Source: Amphiscolops sp. MND2022
Taxonomy: Eukaryota
NCBI GenBank assembly: GCA_964187785.1
Contig: OZ076409.1
Span: 27,592,001-27,656,000, forward strand
Direction of reading: 5' to 3'
DNA length: 64,000 nt
Shown here: piece by piece, positions 1,062 to 50,247 of the stretch
How the letters are laid out: every line of letters begins with the position of its first letter
Numbering within the stretch: position 1 is the stretch's first letter
Notes under the pieces: model-generated
The model's database searches: none
What the model saw: only the letters and a program-made list of their open reading frames with translations
What the model was told of the DNA's origin: nothing
Made by a program: the position numbers and the translations under genes

Positions 1062-2291
1062 GACGATCTCTTCATATGTCCCGTTCTCCATATTGACAGA
1101 TCGTTTCAGTTTTGGAGGCAGTGTTGCGTATAACAAGCTGTCAATCATGCTTTTTGCATTTTCACCAAAAGCTTTTTCTGCCCCTTTATTTAATTCCTCC
1201 AAGAAATCCGGCAGTTTCATGGTATTCGGGTCAAAATTGAGCCGATGCCATTTGTGTTTTGCTGTAGCCTGGCATTCCGGCTTGACATATTTTCTCCGGA
1301 ATATGACCAGCACATCCTCGAGTGTTTGACGGTTAATTGAGTTTATGTTCCTAATTGTCTGCCGGGCCCCTTTCCTGAGCAAGGAATGAAAATGGTTAAT
1401 TTTCTTTTGCTCTGTCATGGCCGGTTGCATTTTGATCATTGTGTGGAACAAGTCCTCAAAAAGTTCAAATTTCTCGCTTTTTCCATCAAACGTCATTGGC
1501 GTGGTTTGGACTGGTCGGATGGTCATCGTTTGTGGTTTGTTTTGCAGACTGACCAGGACGTCTGCCTACCTGTTCAATGGGTCCTGCGGTGCGTCATGTA
1601 CCTCTGTTTCTGGGGCTGGTAGGGTCGTCTCCAGGGAGACATTGTGGTTTGATTGTTGCCTCTCCAGGTTCTGGATTGAGTGGATTCGTCCAGTCAGAAA
1701 GTCGGGAATTTGCTGTTGGGCGTCGTTAGCTCCTGTCACCATGTAAGAGCCAGGTCCCGTGGTGTCTCTTAAATCACCTACGGACCGTGAGTCCTTTTTT
1801 GTTATTTTTGATTTCAACCCGGGTCGATTTTTCCTGTTTTCCTGGCTACTAGGGGACATGCTGGCCTCAGGGTCCCTGTTCCCTGAAGATGACATTGAAC
1901 TCACAAAATTTTGAATTTCTGGGATCACTCTTTCTGATATAGCAGTGTTTATCGATCTGTTTAGTTGATTATGGACTATGGACATCATGGAATTCATTTC
2001 TTGAGACAATCTGAGGTTAAATTCATTCGTGAAGGTCTCAAAAGACTGCCTAACTTCATTTTGTCTAAGGGGCTCGTTTTCTTGTACAAAGTTTCTATAA
2101 GTACTCCTTTGGTACTCATTTACCCCGTAGTCTTCTTGAACAGAGGACTGCTTGATTGCGTCTGCTAATTCCCTCTCAAAAGGGTTTTCAATCCCACTTC
2201 CCAACATTACGTCTAGATTATCTACATCAGACATCATGTCCATTTCCCTAGACTTTCTAGCTTTAGCTTTCTGTCTTCTTGTGGAAGGCAT
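1062..2291 (-). pseudogene. gag: gag of element D: starts in the LTR, in-frame stop at 1566-1568, 3'-truncated
   Basis: ORFs 1566..2447 and 969..1526 are in the same frame. FDGKSEKFELFEDLF...KKINHFHSLLR...LPPKLK aligns with element C Gag (FRGSKDKYNEFEHLL...DKIHFFQSLLR...KLP). The likely start MPSTRRQKAK at 2291 matches the element B LTR ORF. Confidence 0.8.
1730..1741 (-). promoter_or_regulatory. Primer-binding site TGGTGACAGGAG (tRNA-Leu-like) of element D
   Basis: Directly follows the LTR-terminal CA and is identical to the 12-mer after the 5' LTR of element C. Confidence 0.8.
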
Positions 2292-3355
2292 AAGAGACAA
2301 TTGCAAGAGGTAAGAATTGATTATCTTTAGGCTTGCAAGCAGAATAAAATCGATTGATATGCTGCATACAAAAGTTGTGTCCCCCGGTCCAAACGTCCCG
2401 GGTATATTTATGTTTGATTGCATGACTATCGGAAAAAAAACCATCATGTTCTAGCAATAGATAAATACTAATCTAAAAATAGCATCACCTATTTACATGT
2501 AACATGACGCAATGACCTATTGTCCACATCAAAAGGATGGTTCTCTTGCTAGCACCGCCGACAATAGATTAACACTATGTCTGAGTGCCCTTCAGGGCCT
2601 TTCAAGTATACAAGTAGCTTCAACGAAACATTTCATGTAACTGTATTCAAATGGCAACGATTGGCATGTTGAACAAAATATGTCTAAATGCGCATGGTGT
2701 ACAGTTTGCTTCGTTCATGAATTGCTCAAATAGTTCAATGATTTCCATCAAAAGAGGCAATACTACATCGAGAACAACTTGTATTTCAAAAAAGATACTA
2801 CTGGGAGCACCTTTCATTCAATTTTGGACTCAGTGTCCACGCGCCTTTATTTAATAGTGCATCAACTACTATTTGACGGCATATGGCATTTGAGTCCTTT
2901 AATTAGAGCACTGCATAAGAATGATTGAACGAATAGCGCGCTGTGATTGGCTGAGTAATTGGACGGACAGTTTGTCTAGCTAGACAGGAGAGGAAACATT
3001 TGAACTCGTTTCCTCTACCTGTACGCCTTGGTGTTCAATTTCTCAGCTAATGTATATATCTATATAATCTTACATGTATTAGTACATGAAATTCAACTTT
3101 GAAATAATTAAATGTATATTTTACATGGCAATTCCTGATTATTATCGCAAAACGCTTCAGATTTAAGATCATAAAGGCCACAAGTAAAATATTACATATG
3201 TAAAAATCAATCATAATGAAACAAGTTTGTAGTTTATCTTTCATGGCTTTTGGACCAGCAGTCTTTCCGTTAGTTTATTGGAAGCGTACCAGGGAGAGCG
3301 TCATAAATGTATCCAATTGATTACCAGTTTCCATCGCAGGCGGCAGCCCGCGACA
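1742..3355 (-). repeat. 5' LTR of element D (~1.6 kb, TG...CA)
   Basis: TG/CA termini, an adjacent PBS, and length and terminal sequence similar to the element B LTRs. Confidence 0.8.
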
Positions 3356-14124: not shown

Positions 14125-15182
14125 ATGAATAACCTGCAATTTACCCTTGAAGATAGCCCTTTGCTCTCGATTCAATCTCCTGGGATTGTAGATATATCAA
14201 GCGATTCAGGAGAAGAATTTGTCGTTCATCCGGATGATCTTTCCGAAATAGAGGAAAGATTCAGGGTTGGTGGACCAAGATCGGATATGTTGAAGGCATT
14301 CGTGGGTGCAACTTCGGCAAACCTTTTCACATCTGGACCAGAAGACCCCTCAATTGCTGAGACAATTGACACTGCTGGAACACAAATTGAGCGTCAGATG
14401 ATGGAAATCATTGAGGAGCATCAATTCAGTAGTGGGTCTTCATTAACTTCATTCATTGATACGGAACTGGAAGACTCACCCATGTCGCCATGGGAGTCAG
14501 CTGAACCTTCGACACGACCTGTAAACAGCTACGGGAGGCCAGCTGCGGCAATCCTCCCTACACCGAGAAGCAACAACCACGAGACGACAGTGGTCAATAG
14601 ACCCATTCCTACTTACCCGCCTAATTTTGCAAATACTTACCCAATTTATCAACCCCAACAAATCACTGACCCTACATACCACCAAGCAGATCACCCTGTC
14701 AACGGTATCCAACCTAGGACATTGGGCAACAGTGGAGCCTTCTCCGCTAACCCTAATGGTTTGCCTATATTTAGTAATGCACCAATAATGATCCAGATAC
14801 CTCCCCATGAAGGAAGCGCCCATGTTTCACAATTGATTACTGGACCTAATGCTGGACCCTCCCCTCACTTTCCGTTCCAAGCGAACATAGTACAAATCTA
14901 CTGCTCTTGCCTTTTCAAGAAAGACTGCAATATCGACTTTTGCCCCCAGTATTGCCAAACGTCGCTGGATTTTGCGATTGGTGTGGTAAATGCTACAATT
15001 TGATAGCACTTGAGACGCTGGGAGAGTACCTTATTGCAACCACTTATGACGGGGAGACGGTCAGGGACAGAGGTGTCAGGTCCCGTGCCTTTATAGATGG
15101 GTTCGAGGCTGCACTGTTCTCCTTTAAAGGTGCGGGACTGTCGCAGCCTCATGGGTGCTCTGGGTCTGTTCTGCAAGAGTAA
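14125..15182 (+). pseudogene. Accessory ORF-X of A (acidic/Pro-rich N-terminus, CxxC domain), one frameshift near 14830-14900, ending inside the 3' LTR
   Basis: ORFs 14125..15003 and 14907..15182. The C-terminal 58 aa align without gaps to element B ORF 18655..19473 (20 identities). Confidence 0.75.
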
Positions 15183-16767
15183 AAAGGAAAACGAAGAAGC
15201 AGCCTGAAAGACAAACCCAATTTGATGAAACTCAATAAACTACCTTCCCCCCTTTTTAATTCTTTGCTTTTATTGTCTCGTTGTTTACTCTAACCGATGA
15301 GTTAAGTCATGTAAATATTTATTTTATAGTTTCTTTGGTTGAATTGCGAAAGCCAGGTGTAAATTAAGACATGTTGACCAGGTTTTCTTAACTTTTCACC
15401 CTAATTATTGCTTGAAACATTGAGTTGTTTAGTTGAATTTAGGCCATAATCTCTGAATGGAAGCAATGATTAATCTAAACGAGACTTTTCAAATCAGTGA
15501 GTATGCGTCACAGTACGAAAATGTGAAAATGGATACACTTCATCATGCAGTTTGTAATTAATAATTATGCACTATCATACGGAAAATTTCTGACGCATAT
15601 ACTGCAATATGCGGATTTTAACCACCGCTTATGCGGCACCATGCGGAAAATCGTAATTTCCTTGATATGTTGTCACGGTGATAATTGCACGTCACTATGC
15701 GGAAAATCGACGGCGCTTATGCGTCAATATGCGGTTTTCCGAGTCTTTCATCATACGGTGCTATACCATTATTGCATTGTGATTATTCGTTGATATGCGG
15801 AAATTTAAGACCGTATATACGCCATTATGCAGTTTTCCAGGGTTTTTGTCGTAGTTGTACAATACTGGTTTCTGCTTGTCATGTAATGTATATTTAGAGT
15901 TATAAATAGAATTACGACACATGATGTAATTCTTTTTATAGAATATGATGACCATGACACCCATAAAAACGGGTGTAATCCACACCATTTTTCCCTTGTG
16001 CTCAGGACCTTAGAACCCAATCATTCTTTGAAATAACTCTCGTTGAAACCAGTTGATAAAACCTACACTCCAAACCACTGTAAAAGCAGTTTCTCATAAT
16101 CAACAGTTGTCTCATTTTCCAATTTGTTTTGTTGAAAATCTCAGCTGAATTCAAATTCTTCCCTAGCAAACCCAACACATTTTTCACTTGAGAACAATGG
16201 GAAATAAGAGAAACAGAAGATCTAGAAGACATGAAACACCATCGCCTGACCGAGAATTGAGTGAAGCACAAGAAGAAACACCAATGCAAGGTAATGAAAC
16301 TTTAACTAATGTTAGTACTGTTATTCAGGAACCTTTAGGTGAAAACGAAATCAGATCTAGTCTGATAGAACCTAGTCAAATCAGTAACGAAATCCAAGTT
16401 TGGACAGAAAACTTCGAACAAAAGAACAATGATAGGATTATGAAAATGAGAAAAGAAATGGAGAACAAGTTTGATGCAATTTTGAAAGAAATAAGAACAA
16501 GCAAAACAGCATCAACAATAACAAACCCTAGGTCTGAACCAAATGGAATCTACAATTTGCAACCTTCGGGATCCAAAAATGATAAGTCTAGTGGAGTACG
16601 CGCATCTAATATAGAAAACTCAGATACCGAAAATGAGGATGATCATCCCCTCAAGGCCTCCGATATTAGAGAATTAAGGAATCCTGCTAGACCACTTTGT
16701 CAAAATGTACCGAATCTAGACGAAACAATAATATCAGAAGGGGACTCCGAGGAGGAGGATTATCACA
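15139..16767 (+). repeat. 3' LTR of element A (~1.63 kb, boundaries inferred)
   Basis: Starts TGTCGCAG after GCGGGAC, at the same ORF-X codon (G-L-S-Q) where the B LTR starts (G-V-S-Q). Ends GATTATCACA in the same codon phase as the B, C and D LTR ends. No second copy is present to confirm. Contains a TATGCG cluster at ~15500-15830. Confidence 0.7.
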
Positions 16768-17087: not shown

Positions 17088-17783
17088 TTAGACTAAAAAA
17101 TGACTTAATTTGTTTTCTTTTTCGGGCAAAATAGGGATGCTGTCGCGATTTTGTTCGCTATTATTAGAGTCTGTTGAACTCTCTCTAGACCTCATTCTAC
17201 TATTTTCCTGTGTGAAACAAGTTCTGGGACGGTTTTCCCACGATTTCTGAGGATTTCCTACTTCGGCGTTCCGTTGTAGCCCACTGGGCCTCCGGTTCCT
17301 TATGGTGAAATCGGTTGACCTTGGGCTAGGATGCAGCCCGTTGGACCCTCGGTCCACCGTGGTGAAAGTAGGTCTCCCCTGCACTTCTAGTGTATTTTGG
17401 ATAGAAGGAAGCACTATACTTGTTATTGCAGCTGTGATAGCTTCCTGGATTTGAGAATTCAGGCTGGTTTTGACCTCATTGAGTTTTATAGACATTTGAA
17501 TGGAAATTTCTTCGTTTATCAACCTAGTGGTCTCAATTGCAATTTCGCTGTTTTCTCTGCTATTGGAATTAAGTAAAGATCTAAAATCTTCTCCTATAAC
17601 GTTTGAACTTTGTTGTGGTCTACTAGACCCTGAGTCCAAATTCACTTCATTTTCGCTAATATTATTTTCTTCATCATCTCTAGAGTAGCTTCCAAGCATT
17701 ACGTCAACATTTTTTACATCGGACAGCATGTCTAACTGTCTAGAACGTCTTTCTTTAGCCTTTTGCTTTTTTGTTGAAGGCAT
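17088..17783 (-). CDS. LTR-encoded Gag N-terminal segment in the 3' LTR of B, reading out into the flank
   Basis: MPSTKKQKAKERRSRQLDMLSDVKNVDVMLGS is homologous to the D Gag start MPSTRRQKAKARKSREMDMMSDVDNLDVMLGS. Confidence 0.7.
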   Translation of the reverse strand: MPSTKKQKAKERRSRQLDMLSDVKNVDVMLGSYSRDDEENNISENEVNLDSGSSRPQQSSNVIGEDFRSLLNSNSRENSEIAIETTRLINEEISIQMSIKLNEVKTSLNSQIQEAITAAITSIVLPSIQNTLEVQGRPTFTTVDRGSNGLHPSPRSTDFTIRNRRPSGLQRNAEVGNPQKSWENRPRTCFTQENSRMRSRESSTDSNNSEQNRDSIPILPEKENKLSHFLV

Positions 17784-18746
17784 TGAAGAAAATAAACACA
17801 ACAACAATGAATTGACAGAACAAACTAAAGTTAATATGGTTGGTGAATGAAATGTACAGATTGTACTGAAAGTAAAATTGTGATCGCAATTAATGCAGTT
17901 TGAATTGGATTGTGACTTCAAGTTGAGTTTCCAAAGAATGATCCCTCTGGTCTCCTGGGCCTTGCTATAAATACCCTATTCTGCATGACAAGCAAATTTA
18001 CAGGCATCATGTTACTAAATATAAACATGACAAACTAAAAAAAGTAGCAAATATGGTTCCGTCAGCATGACGTCAATACATCAAAGAGCAAGATGGGGGG
18101 CTTTGGCGGTTATGCCAACAAAGTGAGAAAATGTTTATAGCGACCTGTAAGTACATTCAAGGTTAATCTACAACACTACATGTTTCCAGAATACATAATT
18201 TCATGTTATTTAAGCTTTTCACCATAGCGGACGTTAAGTCCGCGTGGCCACACTCAATTACAGCACTAGCAGCACTTGTGCGTTAATTTCACCGTGGCAG
18301 ACATTCTGTCCACGGAGCGTCACTAATATGCTGCACTCTGATTGGTGTAAAATACTTGTACGGCGAGTACAGTGAATTAGAAGAAGCGTTCATTTGAACG
18401 CGTTTCCTCTTCCGCTTACTATTGCATCATATTATTTCATCAATTTACAGACTATCTAATAAATTACGTCAGCATTTTGATACCAAAACAGGCACAGGAT
18501 AAACTACTAAACAGTGAAATACATCCTTGTAGACTAAAATTATTATTTGCACTGAGGCCGCAAGGACCATAAGTCTTTCATGGTGAAAATCAAAATAGTA
18601 AAAATAGCAACAAAATACTTGTAGTTTATATTACCTATTAGTCTTTGCCAGTGTTTAAATGGGAAGAACTCCTGGGGGAGGGTTAGAGTTATCTCCGTCC
18701 AACGTGATTTGATAAAAATTGCCATCAGAGGCGGCAGCCTGCGACA
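17141..18746 (-). repeat. 3' LTR of element B
   Basis: Matches 29019-30621 and is preceded on the minus strand by CCTAGGGGAG (PPT position). Confidence 0.95.
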
Positions 18747-19473
18747 CTCCCCTAGGGATAAAGAGCACTGTACCTTGGTCCATTCCGGCTAAGTAGGCGT
18801 CACGTCTCCTCTGTCGGTTGTCATAACTCTCTCCTCTATAAGTGGTAGACTCCAAGTATCCAAGGACAGCAGTCTCCTTTATTTGTTCGTAACTTCTTCC
18901 GCACACTATACAATCACCATTTTGTGCTTGGTTCGGCTGGCCACATTGTGACGCTATGCGGACACTCAGTCCTTGTATATGCGAATTAGGCTGGAGCGGC
19001 ATCTGACTTTGCGTCGTCGGTGTGTATTCGCGATTGTTGTAAATTGGGCCACGCTCGTGTGGTGGAGGAGATTGAGGCGAGTCAACTATAGGCGTTAATT
19101 GCCCACAATATTTTATGGGTGGGCTCCTGCTTCGGGTAGCTGTACTTGGCCCTGCTCCCCTGTCCAGCGGGTCTGCCTGGCTGTCCACTAGTCGCATCAT
19201 ACGATCAAAATCTTCCCAAGGAAAGTTAGGGTAAGTGTCTTCTGTACTTTCTGTCAACTCCACGGTCATTTTGAGTCCTGCAACTAGTCCTTCTGGCTGG
19301 ATTGGTACTTGCCGGCAACACGCGATCACTTCTATATCACTATCTTCAGTGTCGTCCCGGGTAGCACTGACTGACTCAATGTCCACTTCCATTTCTTCAT
19401 TAGAAGAGTAGTAACTAGGACTGACTGGAAGAGCTGAGAGGTCGTCTAGAAGGAACGGTAGATTCATTTCCAT
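18655..19473 (-). CDS. Accessory ORF-X of B (272 aa, intact), last ~30 codons inside the 3' LTR
   Basis: Open ATG-to-stop frame containing CIVCGRSYEQI..YLESTTYRGES..R..R..AYLAG, homologous to A ORF-X. Confidence 0.8.
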   Translation of the reverse strand: MEMNLPFLLDDLSALPVSPSYYSSNEEMEVDIESVSATRDDTEDSDIEVIACCRQVPIQPEGLVAGLKMTVELTESTEDTYPNFPWEDFDRMMRLVDSQADPLDRGAGPSTATRSRSPPIKYCGQLTPIVDSPQSPPPHERGPIYNNREYTPTTQSQMPLQPNSHIQGLSVRIASQCGQPNQAQNGDCIVCGRSYEQIKETAVLGYLESTTYRGESYDNRQRRRDAYLAGMDQGTVLFIPRGVSQAAASDGNFYQITLDGDNSNPPPGVLPI

Positions 19474-20714
19474 TTCGTTTTGAAATCTACTGAGAAAGAT
19501 TTTCTTCGCAATTTTGAGGTTTCTTTATCCAACTGTTTTAAGCTTTTCAATTCGAGATGAATGATTTCTCCTCTAACTACTTGGACTGCCGGACTTCCCA
19601 TTTTCGCGGGAGTTTGCCGGCGGGGAAACAGTTTCTGATCTTCCCTAAATTTTTACTAAACATTCCATATAAGTAGGTGTTGTCGAATTCCCAGAAATGA
19701 TGAATAAGGTAAACTTCATGATAATTGCCCTTTGGAGTAGGCTCTAGTTGTTTACACAACTACTTGATGACAGTAAATTGGTGTAGTGAGAGGTAACTCA
19801 AGTTAACAGTTGGTAAATAATTTCACCATCAAAGACCTTCGGTCCGCGCGGCTACATCAACTGAAGTAGCCAATGAGGTGTCGTTGATAAATGAATGCTG
19901 AAAATTGATGAAAAATGAGTGAAAATGAGTGAAATTTTCTAAATCAATACTAATCTAAACGGAGAACTAATTCCCCAAACTGAATAAAGACATGAATATC
20001 ACTGGCAGTTTCAATCCAAGCTGAAAAGGATTATAATTGACTAAATGTAATAAGGGAATATGGCATAATTGGTATATAATTATAAATGAAAGAAGTAGTC
20101 AGTAGGCCACGACGTCCAAGTAAGATAATAAGTAATCGATCGTCTTGGAGGTTTAAGATATTGCGTAACTTGACTGTAATTCTAGTAAAGTCGAAAAGTA
20201 CAAGTATTAGTATTATACAGTAATTCACTTTCTGTGTCTGTGATCCAGTATTCTTCACACCTTTTCTCATTCAATACTTGAATTGCTTATTATCCCATTG
20301 AGTATCCAACTCCTCAACGCGAGGCACGGACTTTAAGTCACATTGGCTACAGTAACAGCTAAACTCACAGCAGTCAATCTTCTAAAGGAGTCTGCCAGAA
20401 TCCCACTGTTCCTCTCTCGGAATTGCATCCCCAATCAGCCGACTTTGGACTAAAAGAATTCTGCTTTCCCGTCATGGAAATAGCATCAGGTTGTCTTGAC
20501 TAAACTTGATCAGGGTTTAGGCTTGACTATTTTACTTCCTCCATCATGAAATGTTTTCACATTGAGTTGAATGAAATGAACTTAACTTCCGGAAGATTTT
20601 CAAAAGCGGCAAGATGGATTTTTATGCAGGAAGTGAACCGCGCGAATTTATTCCTTTTTTTTAGAAAAGGAACCAAACGGCCAACCAAACCAAACGGCTA
20701 CTGAGAGTAACAAC

Positions 20715-29015: not shown

Positions 29016-29018
29016 TCT

Positions 29019-30621
29019 CGATTTTGTTCGCTATTGTTAGAGTCTGTTGAACTCTCTCTAGACCTCATTCTACTATTTTCCTGTGTAAAACAAGTTCTGG
29101 GACGGTTTTCCCACGATTTCTGAGGATTTCCTACTTCGGCGTTCCGTTGTAGCCCACTGGACCTCCGGTCCCTTATGGTGAAATCGGTTGACCTTGGGCT
29201 AGGATGTAGCCCGTTGGACCCTCGGTCCACCGTGGTGAAATTAGGTCTCCCCTGCACTTCTAGTGTATTTTGGATAGAAGGAAGCACTATACTTGTTATT
29301 GCAGCTGTGATAGCTTCCTGGATTTGAGAATTCAGGCTGGTTTTGACCTCATTGAGTTTTATAGACATTTGATTGGAAATTTCTTCGTTTATCAACCTAG
29401 TGGTCTCAATTGCAATTTCGCTGTTTTCTCTGCTATTGGAATTAAGTAAAGATCTAAAATCTTCTCCTATAACGTTTGAACTTTGTTGTAGTCTACTAGA
29501 CCCTGAGTCCAAATTCACTTCATTTTCGCTAATATTATTTTCTTCATCATCTCTAGAGTAGCTTCCAAGCATTACGTCACCATTTTCTACATCGGACAGC
29601 ATGTCTAACTGTCTAGAACGTCTTTCTTTAGCCTTTTGCTTTCTTGTTGAAGGCAATGAAGAAAATAAACACAACAACAATGAATTGACAGAACAAACTA
29701 AAATTAATATGGTTGGTGAATGAAATGTACAGATTGTACTGAAAGTAAAATTGTGATCGCAATTAATGCAGTTTGAATTGGATTGTGACTTCAAGTTGAG
29801 TTTCCAAAGAATGGTCCCTCTGGTCTCCTGGGCCTTGCTATAAATACCCTATTCTGCATGACAAGCAAATTTACAGGCATCATGTTACTAAATATAAACA
29901 TGACAAACTAAAAATAGTAGCAAATATGGTTCCGTCAGCATGACGTCAATACATCAAAGAGCAAGATGGGGGGGGGGCTTTGGCGGTTATGCCGACAAAG
30001 TGAGAAAATGTTTATAGCGACCTGTAAGTACATTCAAGGTTAATCTACAACACTACATGTTTGCAGAATACATAATTTCATGTTATTTAAGCTTTTCACC
30101 ATAGCGGACGTTAAGTCCGCGTGGCCACACTAATACAGCACTATCAGCACTTGTGCGTTAATTTCACCGTGGCAGACATTCTGTCCACGGAGCGTCACTA
30201 ATATGCTGCACTCTGATTGGTGTAAAATACTTGTACGGCGAGTACAGTGAATTAGAAGAAGCGTTCATTTGAACGCGTTTCCTCTTCCGCTTACTATTGC
30301 ATCATATTAATTCATCAATGTACAGACTATCTATTAAATTACGTCAGCATTCTGATACCAAAACAGGCACAGGATAAACTATTAAACAGTAAAATACATC
30401 CTTGTAGACTAAAATTATTAATTGCACTGATGCCGCAAGGACCATAAGTCTTTCATGGTGAAAATCAAAATGGTAAAAATAACAACAAAATACATGTAGT
30501 TTATATTACCTATTAGTCTTTGCCAGTGTTTAAATGGGAAGAACTCCTGGGGGAGGCTTAGAGTTATCTCCTTCCAACGTGATTTGATAAAAATTGCCAT
30601 CACAGGCGGCAGCCTGCGACA
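29019..30621 (-). repeat. 5' LTR of element B (last ~5 nt, PBS, rest of gag and protease deleted)
   Basis: Identity with the 3' LTR ends at ..AAATCG and joins directly to pol linker sequence (NTTVTGILQPS..). It carries the Gag N-terminal frame (28979..29656) with ATG changed to TTG. Confidence 0.92.
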
Positions 30622-31819: not shown

Positions 31820-31930
31820 ATAGGATCTAAAGAATAAGATCTAAACTTTAGTGATTTTAGATCTTATTCCTTTTAGATCTTATTCCCGCCCTGAAATTTT
31901 AGATCTTATTCCCTTTAGATCTTATTCCCT
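31820..31930 (+). repeat. Short tandem repeats (TTTAGATCTTATTCC)
   Basis: Four to six copies of agatcttattcc / agatctaaa. Confidence 0.7.
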
Positions 31931-32427
31931 TTTTAGGAGTCGGAAAAAAATTTCGACTACTTATGCAATCGTGCTGTTTTTTTTCTCCCGACCTTTTCAT
32001 GAAAATTTCAAATTTCTCAAAAACTGTACATACGATTTTCACGAAATTTTGCACAGTCATTCTACACCCAAAGGGGCCCCTGCGTGTGCAAAGGCATCAA
32101 AATCGTATGGCTGGGATGTGAGAAACATAGCCAAAATTAGCCCAAAAATGGCCAAAAAACAGCCATTTTTCGACTTTTTTCGACTTTCTCAAAAACTGTC
32201 CATACGATTCGAACGAAATTTTCTACAGTTATTCTACACCATATTAGAGTCCTTTATGTGCAATGGCATCAAAATTGTATGGCTGGGATGTGAGAAACAT
32301 AGCCACGATTAGCCCAAAAATGGCCAAAAAACAGCAATTTTTCGACTTTTTTCGCTTTTCTCAAAAACTGTCCATACGATTCGAACGAAATTTTCTAGTT
32401 ATTCTACACCATATTAGAGTCCTATAT

Positions 32428-34199
32428 TGTCATTCCAGCATGATGGAAATATAATCTACTAAATATCTGTAATGTAAATAATATGTCTTATGTACTTAAA
32501 TATGGGCAATATGGTGTCATATAATAAGATCTATGGTTGTGAGCAACCCTACGTTACATGTACCTAACTCCCTATTTCCCAGTGAGATTTGAGCTATTTA
32601 TCTATTTAATACTGAGCATTCTAGTTCCGTTTGTCCGCAATTCATGATCGTGCTAATAAGTAAATGATGCTACTTTATATTTTAAATGGCTTGTCACGAG
32701 AAGAGAAAGTAGTTTCTCGGTCAAACTGGACCACCATAACCAATAGACGAGAATGACACTCGCTAGGGAACTCCCGCCTCAAAGGAATCTAGCGCGACAA
32801 GCCTCCTCTCTTTGAAATATACGAAACGATGAAATAACGATGTTATTGGTGCTAGAATTCATAATTTAACTCAATCTAACAAGCTTCATCCATATTACAT
32901 CGTCTAACCGTGACCAAAACGCCAGAAAACGAGAAAATTGAAAAACGATGTAAAAGCAATGAAACTACTTGATTGAATACTTGTTGCCATATGTTTCATC
33001 ATTTGTGCATCGCTCACGCTTCCAAAACCTGAAAACAGTGCTAAAATAGCTAACGATGGAAAAACGATGGAAATCTTTCATCGTTTTCTTGTCTATAGCT
33101 AAATCACGCTTCCAAGACCTGAAAACAGTGCTAAAATTGAGAACGATGGAAAAACGATGGAAATCTTTCATCGTTTTCTCATCTATAGTCAAAATTCACC
33201 TATATTGATGATAAAGCGATGTAACTACTCCAGAACTATATGCAGTGCTCCCCCCACAACTCATTCCATCGTTTTCACATCTAGTTGATCGCTTTAACAC
33301 TAGAGCGAAGCTCATTCACCATTCCTGCATCCGCAGCCACACAAACAGAATCAACTAGTGAAAACGATGCCGAAACGACAAAACTACTGAATCCCGTATC
33401 TCCAGTTAACTTAGCGCTATTGATTCATCGTTTTTACATCACATTTGTTTAAAATTGATTTAATCGATCCCCCGTTAGATTGTACCCCAGTTTGATGTAA
33501 TTTCGACACTTGCCGTGACTCAGACGGTGCCTATTACAAGTTGCTAATTTGAATGCATTAAATATTCATAGTAATTGGTTTAAATAGATTAAGCGCGCAA
33601 TTTCAATTGGTAACCCTCCAGCGACATGCAGTACAACCGGTCACGTGACCAAGTGCTAATTAGCACCTTGCTAACCAACCAATGAGAACGAAAAACGATG
33701 GTAAGAATTGAGTCTTACCATCGAGCTGGAGGTAGGCTACCTCAGAGACACAAGATAACTAACGCTACATTGTACAAGTACTTGTATTACTCATCCTTTA
33801 TACGTATCTTACTCCAGATTTTACAACAATTCAACTCTTATCCGCAATAGTCATCTCTTCTCCATCATATGAGTTCTGATTCCCAAATAACATTAAGAAA
33901 CAGGAAAACAATAACTTGTACTACTTCAATAAATTCAACGAGACCTACTCACGAAGAGGAAACTATTAACATGGAAAATAACATTGAAAACGTGAATGAA
34001 CAAGCCCAGTCAGGACAAAATTCGTCGAATTCTGAGATAGATTCTCAGAGGGTCAATGACGAAAGGTTTAGCCACATACAGTCAGAAATGTCTATGCTGA
34101 AGGCCATGATGGAAAAGTTGCTAGAACAAAACGAAGAGAGAAATAGACAAACGGATGCCAATGCCGCGGCATCTTCGTTCGCGGTACGGTCGTCCAACA
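32428..34199 (+). repeat. 5' LTR of element C
   Basis: Direct repeat of 46869-48640, roughly 99% identical by eye. Confidence 0.97.
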
Positions 34200-35356
34200 T
34201 GGTGACAGGAGTCAACAGGACTCACAGAAACCAACGCAACTACTTCCACGACGAAGAAGATGAAGATGATTACGAAGACACACCAAGCAACTCAACGGAG
34301 ATTGCATTACTCAACGCCATCCAAGATCTACCAAGGAAATTGCAGAAAACAAACACGAAACTCCTGCAAGCCCACGTTCCCAATTTCCGAGGCTCTAAAG
34401 ACAAATACAACGAATTCGAACACCTCTTACTTAACCATTTCCGACCCATCGCCATTAAGATCACAGGGGAAGATAAAATACACTTCTTCCAGAGCTTACT
34501 CCGCGATGAAGCCATTGGCTTTTGCCAAACCATCACCATCAACCCAACCACCACTCTACAGGACGTCCTGCAACTATTCAGAAAAGTGTTCGCAAAAGAA
34601 GATATGAGAGAAGTCGCTCGCTACAGAGGGAATGAGGCCAAAGACGACCCGACCACCCAGACATTCGGAGATTTTCTAAAAAACCTCAAGAAAATAGCCA
34701 TGCAAGCATACGGCGACGAGGCCGACAAATGCATCAAGATGTTCCTCTTCGGGAAATTACCAATCGAAAGCCAACAAGAGCTGACAATGGCGAACAAAGA
34801 AGACAGCAGCCCCGAAGAAATCAAAACCTACCTACTCAGAAAATACCAATATCAGAACGTCCTACAACAACCTGCAGCGACATATCAGCCATTCAACCAG
34901 ATGTCTGATAACAACTCCAAACGAGAATTCACACGCTCCGACCAATCTCAGCCCGAATCAGACACTAAACGATTCGATGGAAAATGCTTCTACTGTGGTA
35001 AACAAGGCCACAGGAAACAAGAATGCAGAGGACGCCAAAGAGATGAAGCTAATGGCATTAACAAACCAGACGCCATACAACCTACCAAACGGCAAGATGA
35101 AGATAAGCCAAAATACAACCCAAAACTGGTATGCCAGATTTGCGGGTGTACTGGCCACTCAGCCAGGGACTGCAGAAAAAGAATCCCAAAGCAAACGAGC
35201 ACACCCTACGGACAACTACCACATCAACGAACAGATGACCAAGAGAACAAAGAACGACGACGAGAATTAAAACAACAACAGCGCCCAATGAACCGAATGG
35301 AAATACAAGACAACGATGAAGATCCATCCTCAGAAGGAGAACAGGAGTTTCAGTAA
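33869..35356 (+). CDS. gag: Gag of element C (495 aa, two CCHC knuckles), first 110 codons inside the LTR
   Basis: CFYCGKQGHRKQEC and CQICGCTGHSARDC, a capsid-like central region, and an open frame across the LTR/PBS junction. Confidence 0.92.
   Translation: MSSDSQITLRNRKTITCTTSINSTRPTHEEETINMENNIENVNEQAQSGQNSSNSEIDSQRVNDERFSHIQSEMSMLKAMMEKLLEQNEERNRQTDANAAASSFAVRSSNMVTGVNRTHRNQRNYFHDEEDEDDYEDTPSNSTEIALLNAIQDLPRKLQKTNTKLLQAHVPNFRGSKDKYNEFEHLLLNHFRPIAIKITGEDKIHFFQSLLRDEAIGFCQTITINPTTTLQDVLQLFRKVFAKEDMREVARYRGNEAKDDPTTQTFGDFLKNLKKIAMQAYGDEADKCIKMFLFGKLPIESQQELTMANKEDSSPEEIKTYLLRKYQYQNVLQQPAATYQPFNQMSDNNSKREFTRSDQSQPESDTKRFDGKCFYCGKQGHRKQECRGRQRDEANGINKPDAIQPTKRQDEDKPKYNPKLVCQICGCTGHSARDCRKRIPKQTSTPYGQLPHQRTDDQENKERRRELKQQQRPMNRMEIQDNDEDPSSEGEQEFQ
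34200..34211 (+). promoter_or_regulatory. Primer-binding site TGGTGACAGGAG (tRNA-Leu-like) of element C
   Basis: TGG start directly after the LTR-terminal CA; identical to the D PBS. Confidence 0.85.
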
Positions 35357-38300
35357 AGCCACATTTTCACTCCGCGAACAATCAAAGTCCGCACCCACAC
35401 TCTGACTTCAAAACTCACTCGACTCATCAAACTCAACACAATCGTCATCAGAGGTCTTGGCAGCCCTCTGGTGATTCCAGCAAAGCAGACGAAGTCTATC
35501 TGCGAAGATACCGGAAACCCGATGAACAACCGATGAAAGCGATGAAAACCACCAACAGATTCACTCCATTGGAAAATTCACTTGATGAACAAACGATGAA
35601 CTGGCATAACGACGCATTGAGGCCTGCGCACGATGCCAAAGAGATGTACTCACATCTACAACAGACGGACCGACTCTCAGCTGATGACAAAGCGACAAAA
35701 CGGCTTAGTAGTAAAACACATGCAAACGACAAAAATAGTAGTACCAAAACTAAAAAACATGCAACCAATAATCAATTTCACGTACTTAGTCCCACATTAC
35801 ATTTGAATAAAAATGATAAGATGTTGTTTGTTCCCCTCCAGTTTAACAGCTACGAAAACCAAGGTCTTTTCGACACAGGAGCAGTGCAAAGCGTACTTTC
35901 GGAAGCAGAATTACGCAAATTCACCGCTGCTCATCCCAAAGCAGTACTAGACGAATTACCACCCCCTAACTTTAAAGTTCAGATAGCTAACGGCAACTTA
36001 GTCCCCATTCGAAAACAAGTCCTCTTACGCTTTTTTATAGCTGGAAAAGTCTTCGAAGAAGTCTTTTTGGTCCTCCCAACATTGGGAACGATCCTGATCG
36101 GAATGTCATTTTTTGAAAAGTATTCTGTCAACCTTGACATCAAAAATCATCTAGTTCACTTTCCTAACCATTTGATGTCAATGCAAGTGAGACAACAAAC
36201 AAACAAAAAATTCAAAACTGGGTTAATTGATTTGTATTCCAGCAGCAGAACGACCATCCCTCCCCACCACCAAGTACTGATTGAGGTTCACAGCGACGCG
36301 GACATATCACGTACAACCGGCACGGTAGAAGGGACTCCAGCATTCATGCGCAAGACGTGTCTCTTGGTGTCTCCAGCAGTGGTTGACCTAGACGATGGAA
36401 AAACGATGATTCAGGTCACCAACCACAATGAGCACGTGTACACACTCGAAGCCAACACCAACCTGGCAAACTTTAGAATACCAACGCCCCACCAAGCCGC
36501 CAACATCACACCGATGCCAGTCGGACACCTGAAGTTGATCACCGATCACCCCGACGATGCAGCAGCAGTGATCAATCAACTCTTTGTGAACCCCGAGATG
36601 AAGTCTACAAAACGGTACCCGACACCAGAGACGTGTAGTGAGCCAGACAAACTCAACAAGATCGAACGACGCATTTTCGATGAAATTCTGGCCCTCAGAG
36701 AACTGGAGAAGCTTGATCCCGGCCGCTTCCACGATGAGCGAGTCAAGTTCCCGCAGAACTTCAAGTGGGACGAATCACTTCTTTCTCCGTCTCAACAAGC
36801 TCAGGTAGAGGAGTTGCTGGTAAAGTACAACTCCATTTTTGATAGACATCGTTTAGACATCGGCATGAACACTGATTTTAAAGTAAAATTAACACCCCAG
36901 CATGAAGAACCGGTGTACTCCCAAAGTCTCCCTACCCCTACTAACCTAAAAGATGACTTGCTTGTAGAATTAGCGTTAATGCAGGAGTACGGGATTATAA
37001 CTACTCTCCCTTACAGCAAATACTCGTCACCGATATTTGCACAGCGTAAACCGAATGGTAAACTAAGGATTTTAGTTGACTTGCGGAGAATCAACCACCT
37101 GATCAAGAACGATTACGGAGAACACAACCACCCAGTCACAACTGTTTCAGACGCTGCTCAACACATGGCCGGGAAAAAATATTTCTGTAAACTTGATTGT
37201 TCCCAGGCCTACCACTGCATTCCAATGGCTGATGAGCAGTCAGTCCAACTGTTGTCTTTTAACTTTGGATCCCGTACTTTTGCTTTTCTTAGACTAGCTC
37301 AAGGTCTTAACCGTTCCCTTTCAGCCTTCACCAGCGTAGTCCGCGAGTACTTGGACCCCTTGGTCAAAGCGGACCGCTGTGCCCAGTATGTTGACGACAT
37401 AGGCATAGCAGCAAATACGCCTGATGAGTTGATTGAAAATTTAGAACATGTTTTTCAGCAGTTGTCCAAAGCTGGTTTGAAACTCAGCATGAATAAATGT
37501 GAATTCGGACAACAACAAATTGAATACCTCGGCAAATCAATTTCTAGCACTGGAATAGCACCCATCGAAAAACGAATAACTGATTATTTAAAGAAACTCA
37601 AACCTCCCAATTCAGTTAAAGCTCTCCAACGGTACTTAGGATTTGTCAACTTTTACAGGTCCTACATTCCCCGGTTGGCAGACAAAACAGCCGTTCTTCA
37701 CGAATTAATCAAAAAGACACTACTTTTAAACTAGAACAACGTCACAAAGATGTAATTTTTGACTTTAACGAAAGTTTACTCAAGGCTACTAAACTGTCAT
37801 TGAAACTTCCCCTTCCGGATAAACAATTAGTAATCATGTGTGACGCGAGTGAACATGCAGCAGGTTATGTCCTTTTAATAGAAGACTACTCTGAAACACA
37901 ATCGGGTAGCTTGAAGAAGTACGCACCAGTTGCTTTTGGCTCTAAGAAATTTCAGGGTGGACATATGTCATTAACAATGTACGCTAAAGAGTTTTTAGCC
38001 ATACACTTCGCGTTCGACGAGTTCGGCCACATTCTATGGGGTGTAAAGAAACCTATAATTGTAATGACAGATAATAAAGCACTCACCCGTTTCTTTCAGG
38101 CTAAACACATACCACCGTCACTTTGGAATTTTTGCGACCAGACGCTTCAGTTTAATTTTATTTTAGCACATGTACCAGGTGTAGAGAATCCCGCAGCGGA
38201 TAACTTTTCCAGGTTGGAAATTCGACCTGAAGATCGTGTTCATCTAAAATCAACTTATTCCATTCCAGTACACCATATAGAAATCGAAATCGCCTCAAAG

Positions 38301-40496
38301 ACGCCAAAACAGGAGGAAGACGAACCAGACTACTTTCCTCCTAGCGAAACACTGAGACAGAAGAGGTCACACGATGCTAAACCGATGAAAGTGATCAACT
38401 CTGAGACAGTGACGATCAATGATGGCAAACCGATGAAAACAGTTGACGTAGCGACGACAGCCGGTGACGATGACGAAACGATGAACTACGTACACTCCAC
38501 ACCACTGGCCTCTGAGAATGATCACACAAGCTCCCCTCAGATTTACCAGCTAATGACTGACGCTCACCTACCAGGGTACCTTAGATTCATCGTAAAAACA
38601 TCGTTACTACACCCGGTAACGAAGGAAGTTAGCCCCCCAGGGGGAGTCTATCTAATTTTAACCCAAAAAACGAATAGTGACATTCAACTTATGTTAAAAA
38701 TTTTGTCTGGCGAAACAACTTTGACCCACTCTGTGAACTTGATGTCAACGTTTTTCCAAAAACTTCACTAAAACAGAAAACGCCTTGAAAATGTAAACGG
38801 AGTTCTGTACCGTATCTTTTATGACCATACTGGCCTTGAGTCCCATAAACAAATCGTCGTACCTGATCAAGTGATGTTAGAAATAATCAGGTCCTTACAC
38901 AGTAACACTGTACAGGGACACCCCGGTTCTAAAAAGATGTCACATGAACTACGCCAACGATACTACTCTCCAAGTCTTGCTGAAAAAACACAAAAAATAC
39001 TCGAAAGCTGTGAAACTTGCATGCGATCGAAATCGACGAACGAATCAAAGATCCGTCCACCGGTACAGAAAATATACGACCCGTGTAACGGCCCTACTGA
39101 TCTGATGGAAGTTGACATAGTCGGACCACTGCCTGCATCAAACGGATTCACACATATCCTGACCGCAGTCGACGTATTCTCGCGTTATTTGTTTGCTGTA
39201 CCGCTACGAAAACCCGATACACCATCCGTCGTTAATGCTCTACTGTCGGTATTCGCCAAACACGCGTACGTCCCAACGCATATCCTGACTGACAAAGGAT
39301 CCGTGTTCACTGCCGAATTATTCCAACAACTGCCCAAAGCCATTGGCATTGAAATCTCCCATGCAACTATAAAACATGCACAAACCATAGGAATGGTTGA
39401 GAGAAGTCATGCAAAACTTTAAAAGATCCTAAAAATACATGTGAATGTAGACAGACCTCAATGGGACCGCTATGTCGACATAGCAATCATGGCCCATAAC
39501 ACAACGTACCACACTTCTCTGAAATGTTCACCAACTGACATCTTTCACGGACGCACTCCATACAACGCTTTGGACCTAAAATACTCTAACCCTGAAAGAC
39601 GATTCGACACCAAGTTCGGAGACGTCAACCAGATCCCAAACCGCATGAACGAAATCTACCGAAACAACACAGACAACATAGTAGCTGCATACCACAAGTA
39701 CAAAGCTTATTATGACAGAAAAGCCAAAGCACAACCGCTCAAAGTGAACGACCTTTTTTTCCTACTTGACCCCAAATACGACTCTCAGGGTTGCAAAGAA
39801 GAGTTCGAGACCTTCCACTGGAAAGGTCCGTTCAAAGTGATGAAAGTGCTGTCCGACAGTAACTACATCATACGAAAGGTAGGAACGTTCAAATCACAAT
39901 GCGTTCATCGTATACGACTGAAAATGTTCAAACCAGAGTTCCCTGTAGAAGACGTGGACATCAATAACCAACCAGTATACGCTGACACGGACCGAACGAA
40001 AGGTTCTGATATTTTCGATCCCCACATTCCATCACAAACAAAATTAAACTCGGACGAACCAGAAACTGATGAAGAAACACCAGTTGAAAGAGTCATCCGA
40101 TTCAAATTGCCAGATTATCGGCAGGCAATCAAACACGACAGACCATTGAATCGACTACCGAACCGACTGTCGTTATCACCACAACCGGAAATAATCATAG
40201 ACGACCTGCCCCGAAACGCCCCACAGGTACAATTCAATGAAAATTATGAGATAAATCTACAGGAAATCACTCAAGATACAGCAAAACAGCCAGAACCATC
40301 AACAAAACCTGCCAACACCGAGACACCCCAACAGGTGAACGACGACGAAACGCCAAATCTGATAGCAACGAGGACAAATAAAAGCAAATATAGTCTACGC
40401 GAAAATCCTCAGCCGAAACGCTACTCAGACTTCCTAATTCATGAAATCTCAATTGCTCGAAGCGCCCTACGCAAAACAAACACTACTCTGCAGTAG
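35320..40496 (+). pseudogene. pol: pol of element C (protease, RT, RNase H, integrase), -1 frame relative to gag, with a frameshift near 37730 and stops at 38769 and 39420
   Basis: Protease LFDTGA; RT QYVDDI; RNase H MCDAS..AKEFLA..MTDN; integrase GHPG..CETC, VDIVGP, VDVFSRY, LTDKG, VER. Confidence 0.94.
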
Positions 40497-42066: not shown

Positions 42067-45000
42067 TCAAAATCGATGCTCTCCACCAATTTCCAGACTC
42101 TCAGCCCTTCCTCCATCCGACGTGAAACCTAACCGCTCCAAAACTGCACCACGATACCCATCAGGAGACTCTCTGCCGATTTCATCCCACAAACTGCCTA
42201 TCGTGACGTTTCGCAAATCTTCCGCTCTTCCAATCACTTCGCTACTTTCCATCACTAATCCATCAGGAATACTCTGTAGACCCCGCACATTTCGGGCCTC
42301 ACACCAACTGAGAATTGTCAGGAAAATACTTCTCAGGGACTCTGAAGATAAAGTTGGCAAGCAAATATTGACCATCTGAACACTTTGAATTACACTGCCG
42401 CTCAAACATAACGACAGCTGCATCATCCGCTGCAAATTAGCATCGTTAGTACCATACTGCAACAACTCCCTATCATGGACATCCGATGCATACTCACTCG
42501 TATGGTCATCTCGAAATTGTCTGACAAATTGTACATAAGATTCAGACATCGCAATCCTTTCTTCTTCAGCTATAACTCCATTTCCCTCTAGAGCCTCAAG
42601 AAAGTAGCCAATGGTTTCCTGCATTTCATTGACACTTCCGCGTCAGCACATCAGGACACCAACATGCTAGGGCCATATTGACTTGATCAGAAATCTGTGG
42701 CATCCGTAGCAAGTTCATAGCAATGGTAATCAGGAACTCCTCAACAACGGTAACTGCCGCTCGATACTCCCCCCCCACAAGCATAACAGGCGCGATGAGC
42801 TTCGAAAGTCCGATACAACTGCGACTCTCTCGCTGCACTTAACCGTAGATCAACTACTTGAAAACCAGCCCAGCGGTGCATCTCAAATGATTCCGGTACT
42901 GTCGCAGGTTGAGCAACCATCAAACAAAGCTCTCGGACGGTACTCAGCAATTCATTGACCCCATACAATCCATGATGCATACTTCCACTGAAAGTCTGTT
43001 TCATGTTCTTGAGTACTAAAACAAAACGATTAGAACACAACACGTCAATGACCAGATGCTATTCCGATGTACACTGTATAACAACGTCCTCACCTAGTAC
43101 AGACCTAACAAATGACTCGAAATAGTATTTCCACGCCACCTGATATTTTTCCGATGATAACTATAGACAGTTTCCCCCAACCCCCACATAACACGACGTA
43201 TAATCGATTAAACCTGTATAAACGTAATTACATGTAACAAAAGCAAAATCTAACCAATAGAGTATACCACTCCCTTAGCATGCAATTTCAAAGCTAGCCC
43301 TGGTTCCTGCAAGATTAATAATTCCATCCGATTGGGATCTACACTTCCTCCCAACTGGTCAAGACGCTGTATCAACGCCACAAGACTGTCCCACGACTTA
43401 TGTAACTCCTCCAGGACAGATACAATCTCCCAATTAGAGATTTCACGGGCTACGACACACTGAAATAAAACACATTACTTACACACCTCACTTCAAGTTT
43501 CCATGACAACCACCACGTCTTCCCAACTCCACTAGTCTTGCCGAACCAAAACCAAATATATGAACTCACTGACATGCAGCAAAACAGGACATCTGCGTAA
43601 CACAGGATCCGTCAAACAATCGCGAAGCTTCCCCAGAAGAAAGTTCATCACCACATGAGTTTCCTGCCCGACGAACACAGACAATCCAGCCGTTGTGATA
43701 ATCTGCAATACGGCATGCAATTGTAACGGATTCAGCTGCAACCCGCGTCGGCCGCCATCTCCTTCTAACAACCCTCCAACAGTTGAGAGACATCCACAAC
43801 TGATCCCCACTGGGACAAAGTCATCCACCACACAACTCCAGCAGTCCGCGAGCCACTCAGACACTCGCCTCTCCCAGTCGCCAGTAGCTACGACCTCAAA
43901 CAAGACCACACCCTGCACTGCATCTGCCTCAGCCACACTGACAGAGTAACGAACGACACTCCTACCCAACTCCAGGTATAGTCCAACAGGATTTTCACCA
44001 TATAGCGAAGCTGCGAGTGTGCGGACGACATAAGGCCACACTCCGAAGATCAAAAGCGCCTGGAAAAGGTAAAAACATATTCCAAATCACCAATCAGCCT
44101 CACGACAATAGCACACAAAATACCCCCTCAGAACCTAGACCATTTCCCCGTCTATAGACACAGCATGAAGGTCATTAGGAAATTCCAAACATGTAATACC
44201 AAGTATACATGTAATTTATGAAACATAATTACCACTACAACTTCCTTCCGGCATCCGCCACCGAAAAGACTTCTATACGACACGTCCGTCGTAGCCAAGG
44301 AGTCCCATAAGCTGGTAAGGTCCGTAACGTCTCCACCTCGATAGAGCGCGTCAACAACTACGCAAAGAAACATTCTAAGGCTGCGCTCCGTATCAGGCAC
44401 CTCCTGCATGGTCGAACTCCAGATACTTCCACCTCCGGACTCAATCCGAAATACGTCCTGCACTGACAACGAAGGACACACCTCGACGTCTGGGAGAGAT
44501 AGCCCGCGTAACTCCTCCACCATCTGAGCTGCTTCTGCAACTCTCATCACAGCACCGGTTGGCCTTCGTAGCAACAGTCCACGCCGTAGACGCACTAGGC
44601 AATCCAGTTTATGATGTATCACACCGCGACTGCTGACCTTCAGATCGCAACGGCATAGAAGGCACCGGACATACGCATCGGACGATTGATGCTCCCGAGC
44701 AAAACCAAGTGAAATTCCTGCATAAGGGTGCAGAAACCAGGTCGCTTTAATGCTATTCAATGCCACTGAAACAAACCAGATGGAAAACCGATGCAACCAC
44801 CCTACTGACCGCAGGACAGAAGGGACTTCAGTTCTAAGTAACTATAACGATGAAAAAACGATGTTTCAACTGCATCAGTTGAAGAAAACTCCCACGATGC
44901 AAAAACGATAAAAACTCTGAAAACGAAAAAATGAAAAAAACGAAAGAACAACATCGAAAAAAACCTAAATAATCGATTAAGTAGTCAAGAAAACTGAAAA

Positions 45001-46868: not shown

Positions 46869-48640
46869 TGTCATGCCAGCATGATGGAAATATATTCTAC
46901 TAAATATCTGTAATGTAAATAATATGTCTTATGTACTTAAATATGGGCAATATGATGTCATATAATAAGATCTATAGTTGTGAGCAACCCTACGTTACAT
47001 GTACCTAACTCCCTATTTCCCAGTGAGATTTGAGCTATTTATCTATTTAATACTGAGCATTCTAGTTCCGTTTGTCCGCAATTCATGATCGTGCTAATAA
47101 GTAAATGATGCTACTTTATATTTTAAATGGCTTGTCACGAGAAGAGAAAGTAGTTTCTCGGTCAAACTGGACCACCATAACGAATAGACGAGAATGACAC
47201 TCGCTAGGGAACTCCCGCCTCAAAGGAATCTAGCGCGACAAGCCTCCTCTCTTTGAAATACACGAAACGATAAAATAACGATGTTATTGGTGCTAGAACT
47301 CATAATTTAACTCAATCTAACAAGCTTCACCCATAATACATCGTCTAACCGTGACCAGAACGCCAGAAAACGAGAAAATTGAAAAACGATGTAAAAGCAA
47401 TGAAACTACTTGATTGAATACTTGTTGCCATATGTTTCATCATTTGTGCATCGCTCACGCTTCCAAAACCTGAAAACAGTGCTAAAATAGCTAACGATGG
47501 AAAAACAATGGAAATCTTTCATCGTTTTCTTGTCTATAGCTAAATCACGCTTCCAAGACCTGAAAACAGTGCTAAAATTGAGAACGATGGAAAAACGATG
47601 GAAATCTTTCATCGTTTTCTCATCTATAGTCAAAATTCACCTATATTGATGATAAAGCGATGTAACTACTCCAGAACTATATGCAGTGCTCCCCCCACAA
47701 CTCATTCCATCGTTTTCACATCTAGTTGATCGCTTTAACACTAGAGCGAAGCTCATTCACCATTCCTGCATCCGCAGCCACACAAACAGAATCAACTAGT
47801 GAAAACGATGCCGAAACGACAAAACTACTGAATCCCGTATCTCCAGTTAACTTAGCGCTATTGATTCATCGTTTTTACATCACATTTGTTTAAAATTGAT
47901 TTAATCGATCCCCCGTTAGATTGTACCCCAGTTTGATGTAATTTCGACACTTGCCGTGACTCAGACGGTGCCTATTACAAGTTGCTAATTTGAATGCATT
48001 AAATATTCATAGTAATTGGTTTAAATAGATTAAGCGCGCAATTTCAATTGGTAACCCTCCAGCGACATGCAGTACAACCGGTAACGTGACCAAGTGCTAA
48101 TTAGCACCTTGCTAACCAACCAATGAGAACGAAAAACGATGGTAAGAATTGAGTCTTACCATCGAGCTGGAGGTAGGCTACCTCAGAGACACAAGATAAC
48201 TAACGCTACATTGTACAAGTACTTGTATTACTCATCCTTTATACGTATCTTACTCCAGATTTTACAACAATTCAGCTCTTATCCGCAATAGTCATCTCTT
48301 CTCCATCATATGAGTTCTGATTCCCAAATAACATTAAGAAACGGGAAAACAATAACTTGTACTACTTCAATAAATTCAACGAGACCTACTCACGAAGAGG
48401 AAACTGTTAACATGGAAAATAACATTGAAAACGTGAATGAACAAGCCCAGTCAGGACAAAATTCGTCGAATTCTGAGATAGATTCTCAGAGGGTCAATGA
48501 CGAAAGGTTTAGCCACTTACAGTCAGAAATGTCTATGCTGGAGGCCATGATGGAAAAGTTGCTAGAACAAAACGAAGAGAGAAATAGACAAACGGATGCC
48601 AATGCCGCGGCATCTTCGTTCGCGGTACGGTCGTCCAACA
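46869..48640 (+). repeat. 3' LTR of element C
   Basis: Direct repeat of the 5' LTR, preceded by CCCGGGAG. Confidence 0.97.
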
Positions 48641-50180: not shown

Positions 50181-50247
50181 ACGTTATTAGCATCTTCAGT
50201 TTGAAGATGCTGATAACGTTTAACGTCAAGCTAGCAGCGTACATCCT
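50153..50247. other. 95-bp near-perfect inverted repeat (hairpin)
   Basis: 26-bp perfect outer stem, 2-nt mismatch, 18-bp inner stem with one G-T pair, 3-nt loop GTT. Confidence 0.9.

Follow-up and report, generated by a model that had tools for sequence, protein, structure and literature searches.

Evidence that the LTR end and the primer-binding site lie inside gag in a clade of Ty3/gypsy elements

The 64,000-nucleotide stretch of DNA analysed here (the window; Amphiscolops sp. MND2022, contig OZ076409.1) contains four related LTR elements, A, B, C and D, all four copies being defective. In C and D the gag reading frame opens deep inside the 5′ LTR and continues, without a change of frame, through the LTR end and the primer-binding site (PBS) into the body of gag. 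Taken together with the predicted proteins of their relatives, these frames suggest that the 3′ end of the LTR and the PBS lie inside gag throughout one Ty3/gypsy clade and that Gag is translated from an ATG within the LTR, an explanation which, judged from sequence data, we consider likely as a whole. The first-pass annotation had described a gag start in the LTR and a frame through the LTR end and PBS in all four elements; C and D bear this out directly and are the only copies in which the junction can be read within the window, B and A having no junction there.

Element C is the only copy that is complete in outline. Its 5′ LTR (32428..34199, plus strand; 1772 bp, TG...CA) is 99% identical to the 3′ LTR (46869..48640, plus strand), with 18 differences between the two, and the element is flanked by a TATAT target duplication (32423-32427 and 48641-48645). 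The gag ATG is at 33869, 331 nt upstream of the 5′ LTR end at 34199, as had been annotated. The LTR-encoded start of gag (33869..34199, plus strand) comprises 110 codons and one base and specifies a short start motif, a disordered part and a helix at residues 54-101. The frame then crosses the junction as ..AAC A|TG GTG ACA GGA (..SSN|MVTG, the SN-MVTG crossing of the earlier annotation), the junction codon and PBS (TGGTGACAGGAG; 34199..34212, plus strand) reading M-V-T-G-V, and remains free of stops to 35356. The resulting gag (33869..35356, plus strand) encodes 495 aa, with the N-terminal region followed by capsid-like helices and two zinc knuckles. The pol frame (PR-RT-RH-IN; 35320..40496, plus strand) is interrupted by a frame change and stops; it lies in the -1 frame relative to gag and overlaps the gag end by 37 nt (35320-35356), which suggests a programmed frameshift. 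In the 3′ LTR the same gag-start frame begins at 48310, stays open for 110 codons and then enters unrelated flank. Four of the changes between the two C LTRs fall in the gag-start frame and 4/4 alter residues, but the LTR pairs of C and B cannot be used for selection tests because their differences arose after insertion. The U3 part of the C LTR carries a 90-bp tandem duplication (33014-33188 and 47455-47629), and the element sits in an array of 172-175 bp satellite units (31845-32427 and 48641-51550), whose unit is restored by the TATAT duplication.

Element D retains one LTR, a 5′ LTR of 1614 bp (1742..3355, minus strand) with the gag ATG at 2291, 183 codons and one base inside the LTR. Its PBS (from 1741) and gag body (1098..1741, minus strand) contain one internal stop and are truncated downstream, and the junction reads GSY|MVTGA, in agreement with the roughly 183 codons and the SY-MVTG crossing reported previously. 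The 12 nt from the LTR end onward, starting with TGG, are identical in C and D. Element B has two LTRs with TG...CA ends and a GCATC target duplication. Its 3′ LTR (17141..18746, minus strand; 1606 bp) has an ATG at 17783 followed by 214 codons and one base to the LTR end, and it is here alone that the whole 214-codon frame is visible; the 5′ LTR (29016..30621, minus strand) has TTG as its start codon and has lost its last bases, the PBS and gag to a deletion. Of element A the window holds pol, accessory frames and a single LTR, the 3′ LTR (15139..16767, plus strand), in which the ATG at 16197 opens 190 codons and one base; the left end of this LTR was set by its resemblance to the LTR starts of B and D, and the right end by relatives reading DYH|MVTG. 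In both B and A the LTR end falls after the first base of a codon, so that the earlier counts of about 214 and 190 codons and the common end phase hold.

All four are Ty3/gypsy (Metaviridae) elements, as indicated by the pol order PR-RT-RH-IN in C, B and A (Pfam) and by solved-structure matches of the B reverse transcriptase, the best of which are Ty3 RT (E 2e-20 and 4e-20). Gag contains zf-CCHC above the Pfam cut-off, its Atlas neighbours carry Ty3_capsid, Retrotrans_gag and zf-CCHC at 0.92-0.94, and a fold search with Gag gave weak HIV-1 CA matches only (best E 0.03). Membership of Ty1/copia (Pseudoviridae) was ruled out by the position of the integrase downstream of RNase H, the likeness to Ty1 being confined to the gag/PBS layout. 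Self-priming of the Tf1 type was ruled out as well, the longest complement to the PBS in the element's own LTR being 6 nt in C and 8 nt in D where about 11 nt or more would be expected. A tRNA-end pattern matched 12 loci in viral contigs, called by ARAGORN as Leu (2), Met (3), Ser (1), Tyr (1) and Arg (1), with no call in four; the pattern itself fixed 11 of the 11-13 matching bases in these 12 loci. Among the metagenome contigs and viral contigs searched there were no loci related to the elements.

We then compared the junction across relatives obtained by protein searches, all of them predicted proteins: the best 120 of 165 matches for C, the best 120 of 2980 for D and all 111 for A. Among the matches listed, the junction motif is present with upstream sequence in 104/120 (C), 120/120 (D) and 111/111 (A, mostly ..DYH|MVTG), the D and A lists being biased to long forms, with the LTR part only as the A query and the best 120 of 2980 matches for D. 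Four of the 120 listed C relatives begin at the junction motif and 12 lack it. The junction Met is preceded by N, D, Y or H in 329 of the 335 listed relatives, against an upstream background of 16%; in the remaining six the preceding residue is S, V, I or C, and K, E, Q, M and W never occur at this position. Since N, D, Y and H are exactly the residues coded by x-A-C, the protein motif reports an LTR that ends in ACA and is read in one fixed phase. The in-frame Met formed by the terminal A of the LTR and the TG of the PBS, as annotated previously, is thus seen directly in C and D, and the relatives supply it for A (DYH|MVTG) and B (NRD|MVT). The open frame across the junction in C, D and their relatives also supports the earlier proposal that the integrase attachment (att) end and the PBS serve at the same time as coding sequence.

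The B junction was approached through the LTR frame, with the best 150 of 665 matches listed, 40 of which extend to the LTR end. Six of these 40 proceed into Gag, reading NRD/NHD|(M/I)VT(G/E)A. Just past the LTR end, 35 of the 40 peptides have a residue that is possible from an A-initial codon, after which most diverge immediately, as should be the case for 3′ or solo LTRs; of the five that do not fit an A-initial codon, four resemble offset alignments. The listed B matches (P0427-P0576) are mostly short peptides in which the match breaks off no later than the LTR end. In this clade, 3′ and solo LTRs have been annotated as genes in quantity (665 clusters at 50% identity).

Several comparisons bear on whether the LTR frame is kept as coding sequence. 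An open frame of this kind arose in 9 of 20000 base shuffles for C and in no shuffle for D, B or A (20000 each); the five remaining frames of the LTR parts contain 2-26 stops. The C search admitted proteins of 272-867 residues, and hence short forms too; among its listed clusters, 88/120 have representatives with at least 95 LTR-coded residues (1669 of 1844 members, counts that include fragments), and the 4/120 with junction starts are clusters of one or two members (7 members in all). We counted about 1220 corrected substitutions and 13 gaps in the LTR part across ten lineage pairs at 35-73% identity; the pairs are not fully independent, and two of their 20 proteins represent clusters with only 1 and 3 members. 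Over the same pairs, neutral evolution would be expected to introduce about 57-75 stops, an expectation that is inflated because the relatives are predicted proteins and are therefore open by construction. Start motifs, of three kinds, are kept in 272/305 long relatives. Compared as proteins, the LTR frames of B and D align with a score of 191 (best of 200 shuffles, 84), and over 124 codons the identity at the three codon positions is 0.48/0.62/0.42, the second position being best kept, a pattern towards which a protein-guided codon alignment leans. The frames of C, A and B/D did not align with one another. In 5/6 groups, Gag varies most in the LTR part (identity 0.47-0.75 vs 0.81-0.97 for the capsid), where substitutions have BLOSUM62 values of -0.22 to +0.19 vs -0.34 to -0.24 for neutral change and so are only marginally more conservative; the better-kept patches are the first 15 residues and the helix. 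On these alignments the LTR part is a strictly kept open frame with loose residues, in which residue-level constraint is weak.

We also modelled what the LTR part encodes. In the model of C Gag, the mean pLDDT of which is only 56 over the whole protein, a helix spans residues 54-101 (pLDDT 83-90 over 61-90) amid disorder and is followed by capsid-like helices and zinc knuckles. A three-copy model of residues 50-105 scored 0.56 vs 0.10 for the best control, with at least 94% of contacts in agreement between runs and pLDDT of at least 78. The 0.56 mark was attained by 21/30 proteins solved as pairs and by 0/23 solved as single chains; the three-copy job is unlike this calibration, and passes among animal proteins may reflect memory of solved coiled coils. 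The LTR-encoded helix of C Gag is predicted to self-associate, and the coiled coil suggested for the LTR part in the first-pass annotation agrees with this model. The basic, NLS-like start suggested alongside it fits B, D and A, which have 6-7 K/R in the first 16 residues, and does not fit C, which has only 3. The LTR part had no Pfam match and no usable Atlas match, and showed no sequence match to any named family. To call it an extension, as was done before, is misleading: in the available text of two studies, a helix and disorder ahead of the capsid, without a matrix domain, are usual in metaviral Gag (PMC10516033), and Cer1 Gag has a long helix or coiled coil with disorder in the same place (PMC10309623). 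As helix plus disorder is typical of metaviral Gag, what we observe is best described as an ordinary Gag N-terminal region, with nothing added, in which the PBS and LTR end are located 100-214 codons inside the gene.

These observations lead us to the following proposal. Transcription would start inside the 5′ LTR ahead of the gag ATG, probably in the ATG-free 170-240 nt that immediately precede it. The ATG-free gap before the gag ATG is the longest in the LTR in C (171 nt), B (203 nt) and A (243 nt), with probabilities at the LTR's own ATG rate of 0.013, 0.004 and <0.001, and measures 76 nt in D (P ~0.1); at the LTR ATG the base composition shifts to A-rich, resembling the gag body. A search of the LTRs for shared promoter or poly(A) motifs found none, and no conserved TATA or poly(A) signal places R. 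The genomic RNA would be translated from the LTR ATG through 103-214 LTR codons, giving a short conserved or basic start, a disordered spacer and the putatively self-associating helix, and translation would then cross ACA|TGG (N/D/Y/H-M-V-T-G) into a linker, the capsid and the zinc knuckles. A host tRNA would prime the same RNA at the coding PBS, so that minus-strand strong-stop DNA would copy the first fifth to third of gag into R-U5 and each LTR would come to carry a gag start. With one RNA serving as both message and template, the strong-stop DNA would have to exceed 331-643 nt, and the gag start would be copied into both LTRs. The LTR-coded part would be the normal N-terminal region of a metaviral Gag, preserved chiefly as an open frame, with residues conserved in two patches. 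Of the three phases at the junction, one contains a stop, one reads H-G-D-R and one reads M-V-T-G, and the clade could not easily change the phase once it was fixed.

The status of the junction Met is central to two of the alternatives. Were Gag to start at this Met, with the upstream frame a relic or kept for RNA-level reasons, its near invariance among relatives and the weak residue-level constraint upstream would be readily understood, and in the C family the Met has a purine at -3 (from the N or D codon) and G at +4. However, an LTR-terminal CA followed immediately by TGG forces the Met, which is therefore invariant without selection of its own and would be a by-product rather than a separate start. 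The D and A families have a pyrimidine at -3 (from the Y or H codon), the upstream frame is open at 35-73% identity with its start motifs kept, and junction starts are limited to the few small C clusters described above. Moreover, 9-15 ATGs precede the junction Met in the LTR frame region, so that scanning ribosomes should rarely reach it. We regard an exclusive start at this position as very improbable. The first-pass annotation had raised the possibility of long and short Gag isoforms, which would require both starts to be used, the short form arising through an internal start site or a shorter RNA. An in-frame Met is indeed present in nearly all relatives, the capsid would be whole in the short form according to the C Gag model, and Ty1 is reported to have a truncated Gag made from a subgenomic RNA (PMC4551931). 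Yet selection on the Met itself is not required, ribosomes would be unlikely to leak past 9-15 ATGs, one alternative phase is closed by a stop, an RNA beginning near the junction would leave almost no strong-stop template, and we have no positive evidence for the short form, with 4/120 junction starts among the listed C relatives; isoforms thus find no support here, and use of both starts seems unlikely.

A further alternative holds that the LTR frame acts mainly as a separate peptide or a spliced-on exon that gives an accessory protein the same N-terminus as Gag, produced from spliced or trans-spliced RNA or from 3′ or solo LTRs. The precedent would be Cer1, in which, in the accessible text of PMC10309623, Gag and the Cer1-derived CERV have in common an N-terminal segment that carries a leucine zipper and an NLS, and an acceptor lies before the ATG. 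Pyrimidine-rich AG sites do occur 30-90 nt upstream of the ATG in A, B and C, but they are unremarkable, ranking 2-5 among 22-34 such sites per LTR. The elements also carry accessory frames. The frame itself, however, is not closed by a stop at the LTR end but continues into random flank, and it is always in phase with gag. As the main function we consider this quite unlikely; it could supplement rather than replace translation of Gag from the LTR ATG, which remains our preferred explanation.

Coding sequence that overlaps an LTR is familiar from HIV nef, MMTV sag and the 3′ ORF of plant centromeric retrotransposons. Those overlaps lie in U3 of the 3′ LTR and end there, without extending through the att end and PBS into gag; in A and B, the accessory frame entering U3 is a comparable case. 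The statement that gag is established to start downstream of the PBS, on which the first-pass annotation relied, is overstated, as Ty1 and Tca5 are published exceptions (PMC5454406, PMC4139406). In the copia-type Ty1 of Saccharomyces cerevisiae, as far as the available text describes it, the LTR contains the GAG start and the PBS is part of the coding sequence, the RNA begins at nt 241 of a 334-bp LTR, the PBS occupies RNA nt 95-104 and some PBS mutations are silent in GAG (PMC5454406); the accessible part of PMC3681743 contains nothing further on this layout. From these figures we calculate about 13 LTR codons for Ty1, in contrast to 103-214 in the present clade, and Ty1 is copia-type and primed by tRNAi-Met whereas the clade is Ty3/gypsy. 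Matching element C in depth is Tca5 of Candida albicans, a Ty5-like copia element with an ORF from nt 382 of a 685-bp LTR, hence about 100 codons and an inset called "unusually deep"; it is a single low-copy element whose start site is termed unclear in the review (PMC4139406, available part). Tca5 is a lone copia element; the present case is a gypsy clade whose predicted proteins number in the hundreds to thousands, whose phase is fixed and in which coding sequence takes up as much as 40% of the LTR. Cer1 and other metaviral Gags resemble the clade in having a long helix or coiled coil and disorder before the capsid and no matrix domain, but the available text of PMC10309623 and PMC10516033 does not place this N-terminal region inside the LTR. 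No gypsy or animal gag that starts inside the LTR came up in a literature search by literal phrases, which covered few subscription papers and argues only weakly for absence, and the accessible main text of the acoel genome papers and of a bdelloid-element paper does not mention the layout; the repeat libraries of the acoel genome papers may bear on its novelty. The principle is known from Ty1 and Tca5, and what we describe is a variant of it, characterized in this animal gypsy clade by its depth, by a phase that stays fixed across many lineages and by the inclusion of an entire structural region in the LTR.

In this clade, integrase attachment, tRNA priming and protein coding would be superimposed on the same dozen bases across wide divergence, and the coding share of the LTR is 19-40%. 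Annotators who seek gag only downstream of the PBS lose 100-214 residues in the clade, and its solo LTRs seed many spurious predicted proteins. Conversely, the N/D/Y/H-MVTG motif locates the LTR end from the protein sequence alone. If solo LTRs express the helix, they would offer a testable route to copy-number control or new host genes. It is tempting to speculate, although we hold the full scenario to be doubtful, that a single relocation of the priming site into gag, in the ancestor of the clade, turned U5 into the entire Gag N-terminal domain, with coding sequence at the opposite LTR end as well. Each 3′ or solo LTR would then consist of a promoter, an ATG and a stop-less, self-associating fragment of 100-214 codons, which might be expressed at thousands of genomic sites either as capsid-less poison peptides limiting copy number or as ready-made N-terminal fusions to host sequence.

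Coding sequence may also extend into the left LTR end, in which case both LTR ends would be coding in the clade. A sense accessory frame of element B with a CxxC motif (18655..19524, minus strand) crosses the polypurine tract and continues for 30 codons into the 3′ LTR, and its homologue in A (14850..15183, plus strand; tblastn E 7.6e-07) enters the LTR for 14 codons in the same phase. Element C has a short frame at about 46775-46905 (plus strand) in the same phase as the A/B accessory frame, with a similar DGN motif. The polypurine tracts (46845-46868, plus strand; 18747-18770, minus strand; 15120-15138, plus strand) have only a short G-rich end (GGGAG, GGGGAG and GCGGGAC) after pyrimidine-rich sequence, an atypical form that may reflect a coding role.

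Between pol and the 3′ LTR lie two antisense frames, homologous in A and B (E 7e-07 and 2e-12), at 8176-9123 and 10877-12328 (minus strand) in A and at 23612-24919 and 20860-22746 (plus strand) in B; remnants resembling them in C (42067-42642 and 44152-44841, minus strand) have no significant similarity. One of the A/B frames has a C-x2-C...H zinc-finger-like motif. Neither has a Pfam match, and they may resemble pieces of a DNA transposase. Elsewhere in the window, 54335-55788 carries long inverted repeats (54335-54600 vs 55526-55763, 78%) with identical 40-bp cores and looks like a non-autonomous DNA transposon. Tandem arrays are found within element A (9294-9645, 32-bp unit) and at 52085-53679, 59821-60384 and 61839-62475, with units of about 406, 172-176 and 361 bp, respectively.
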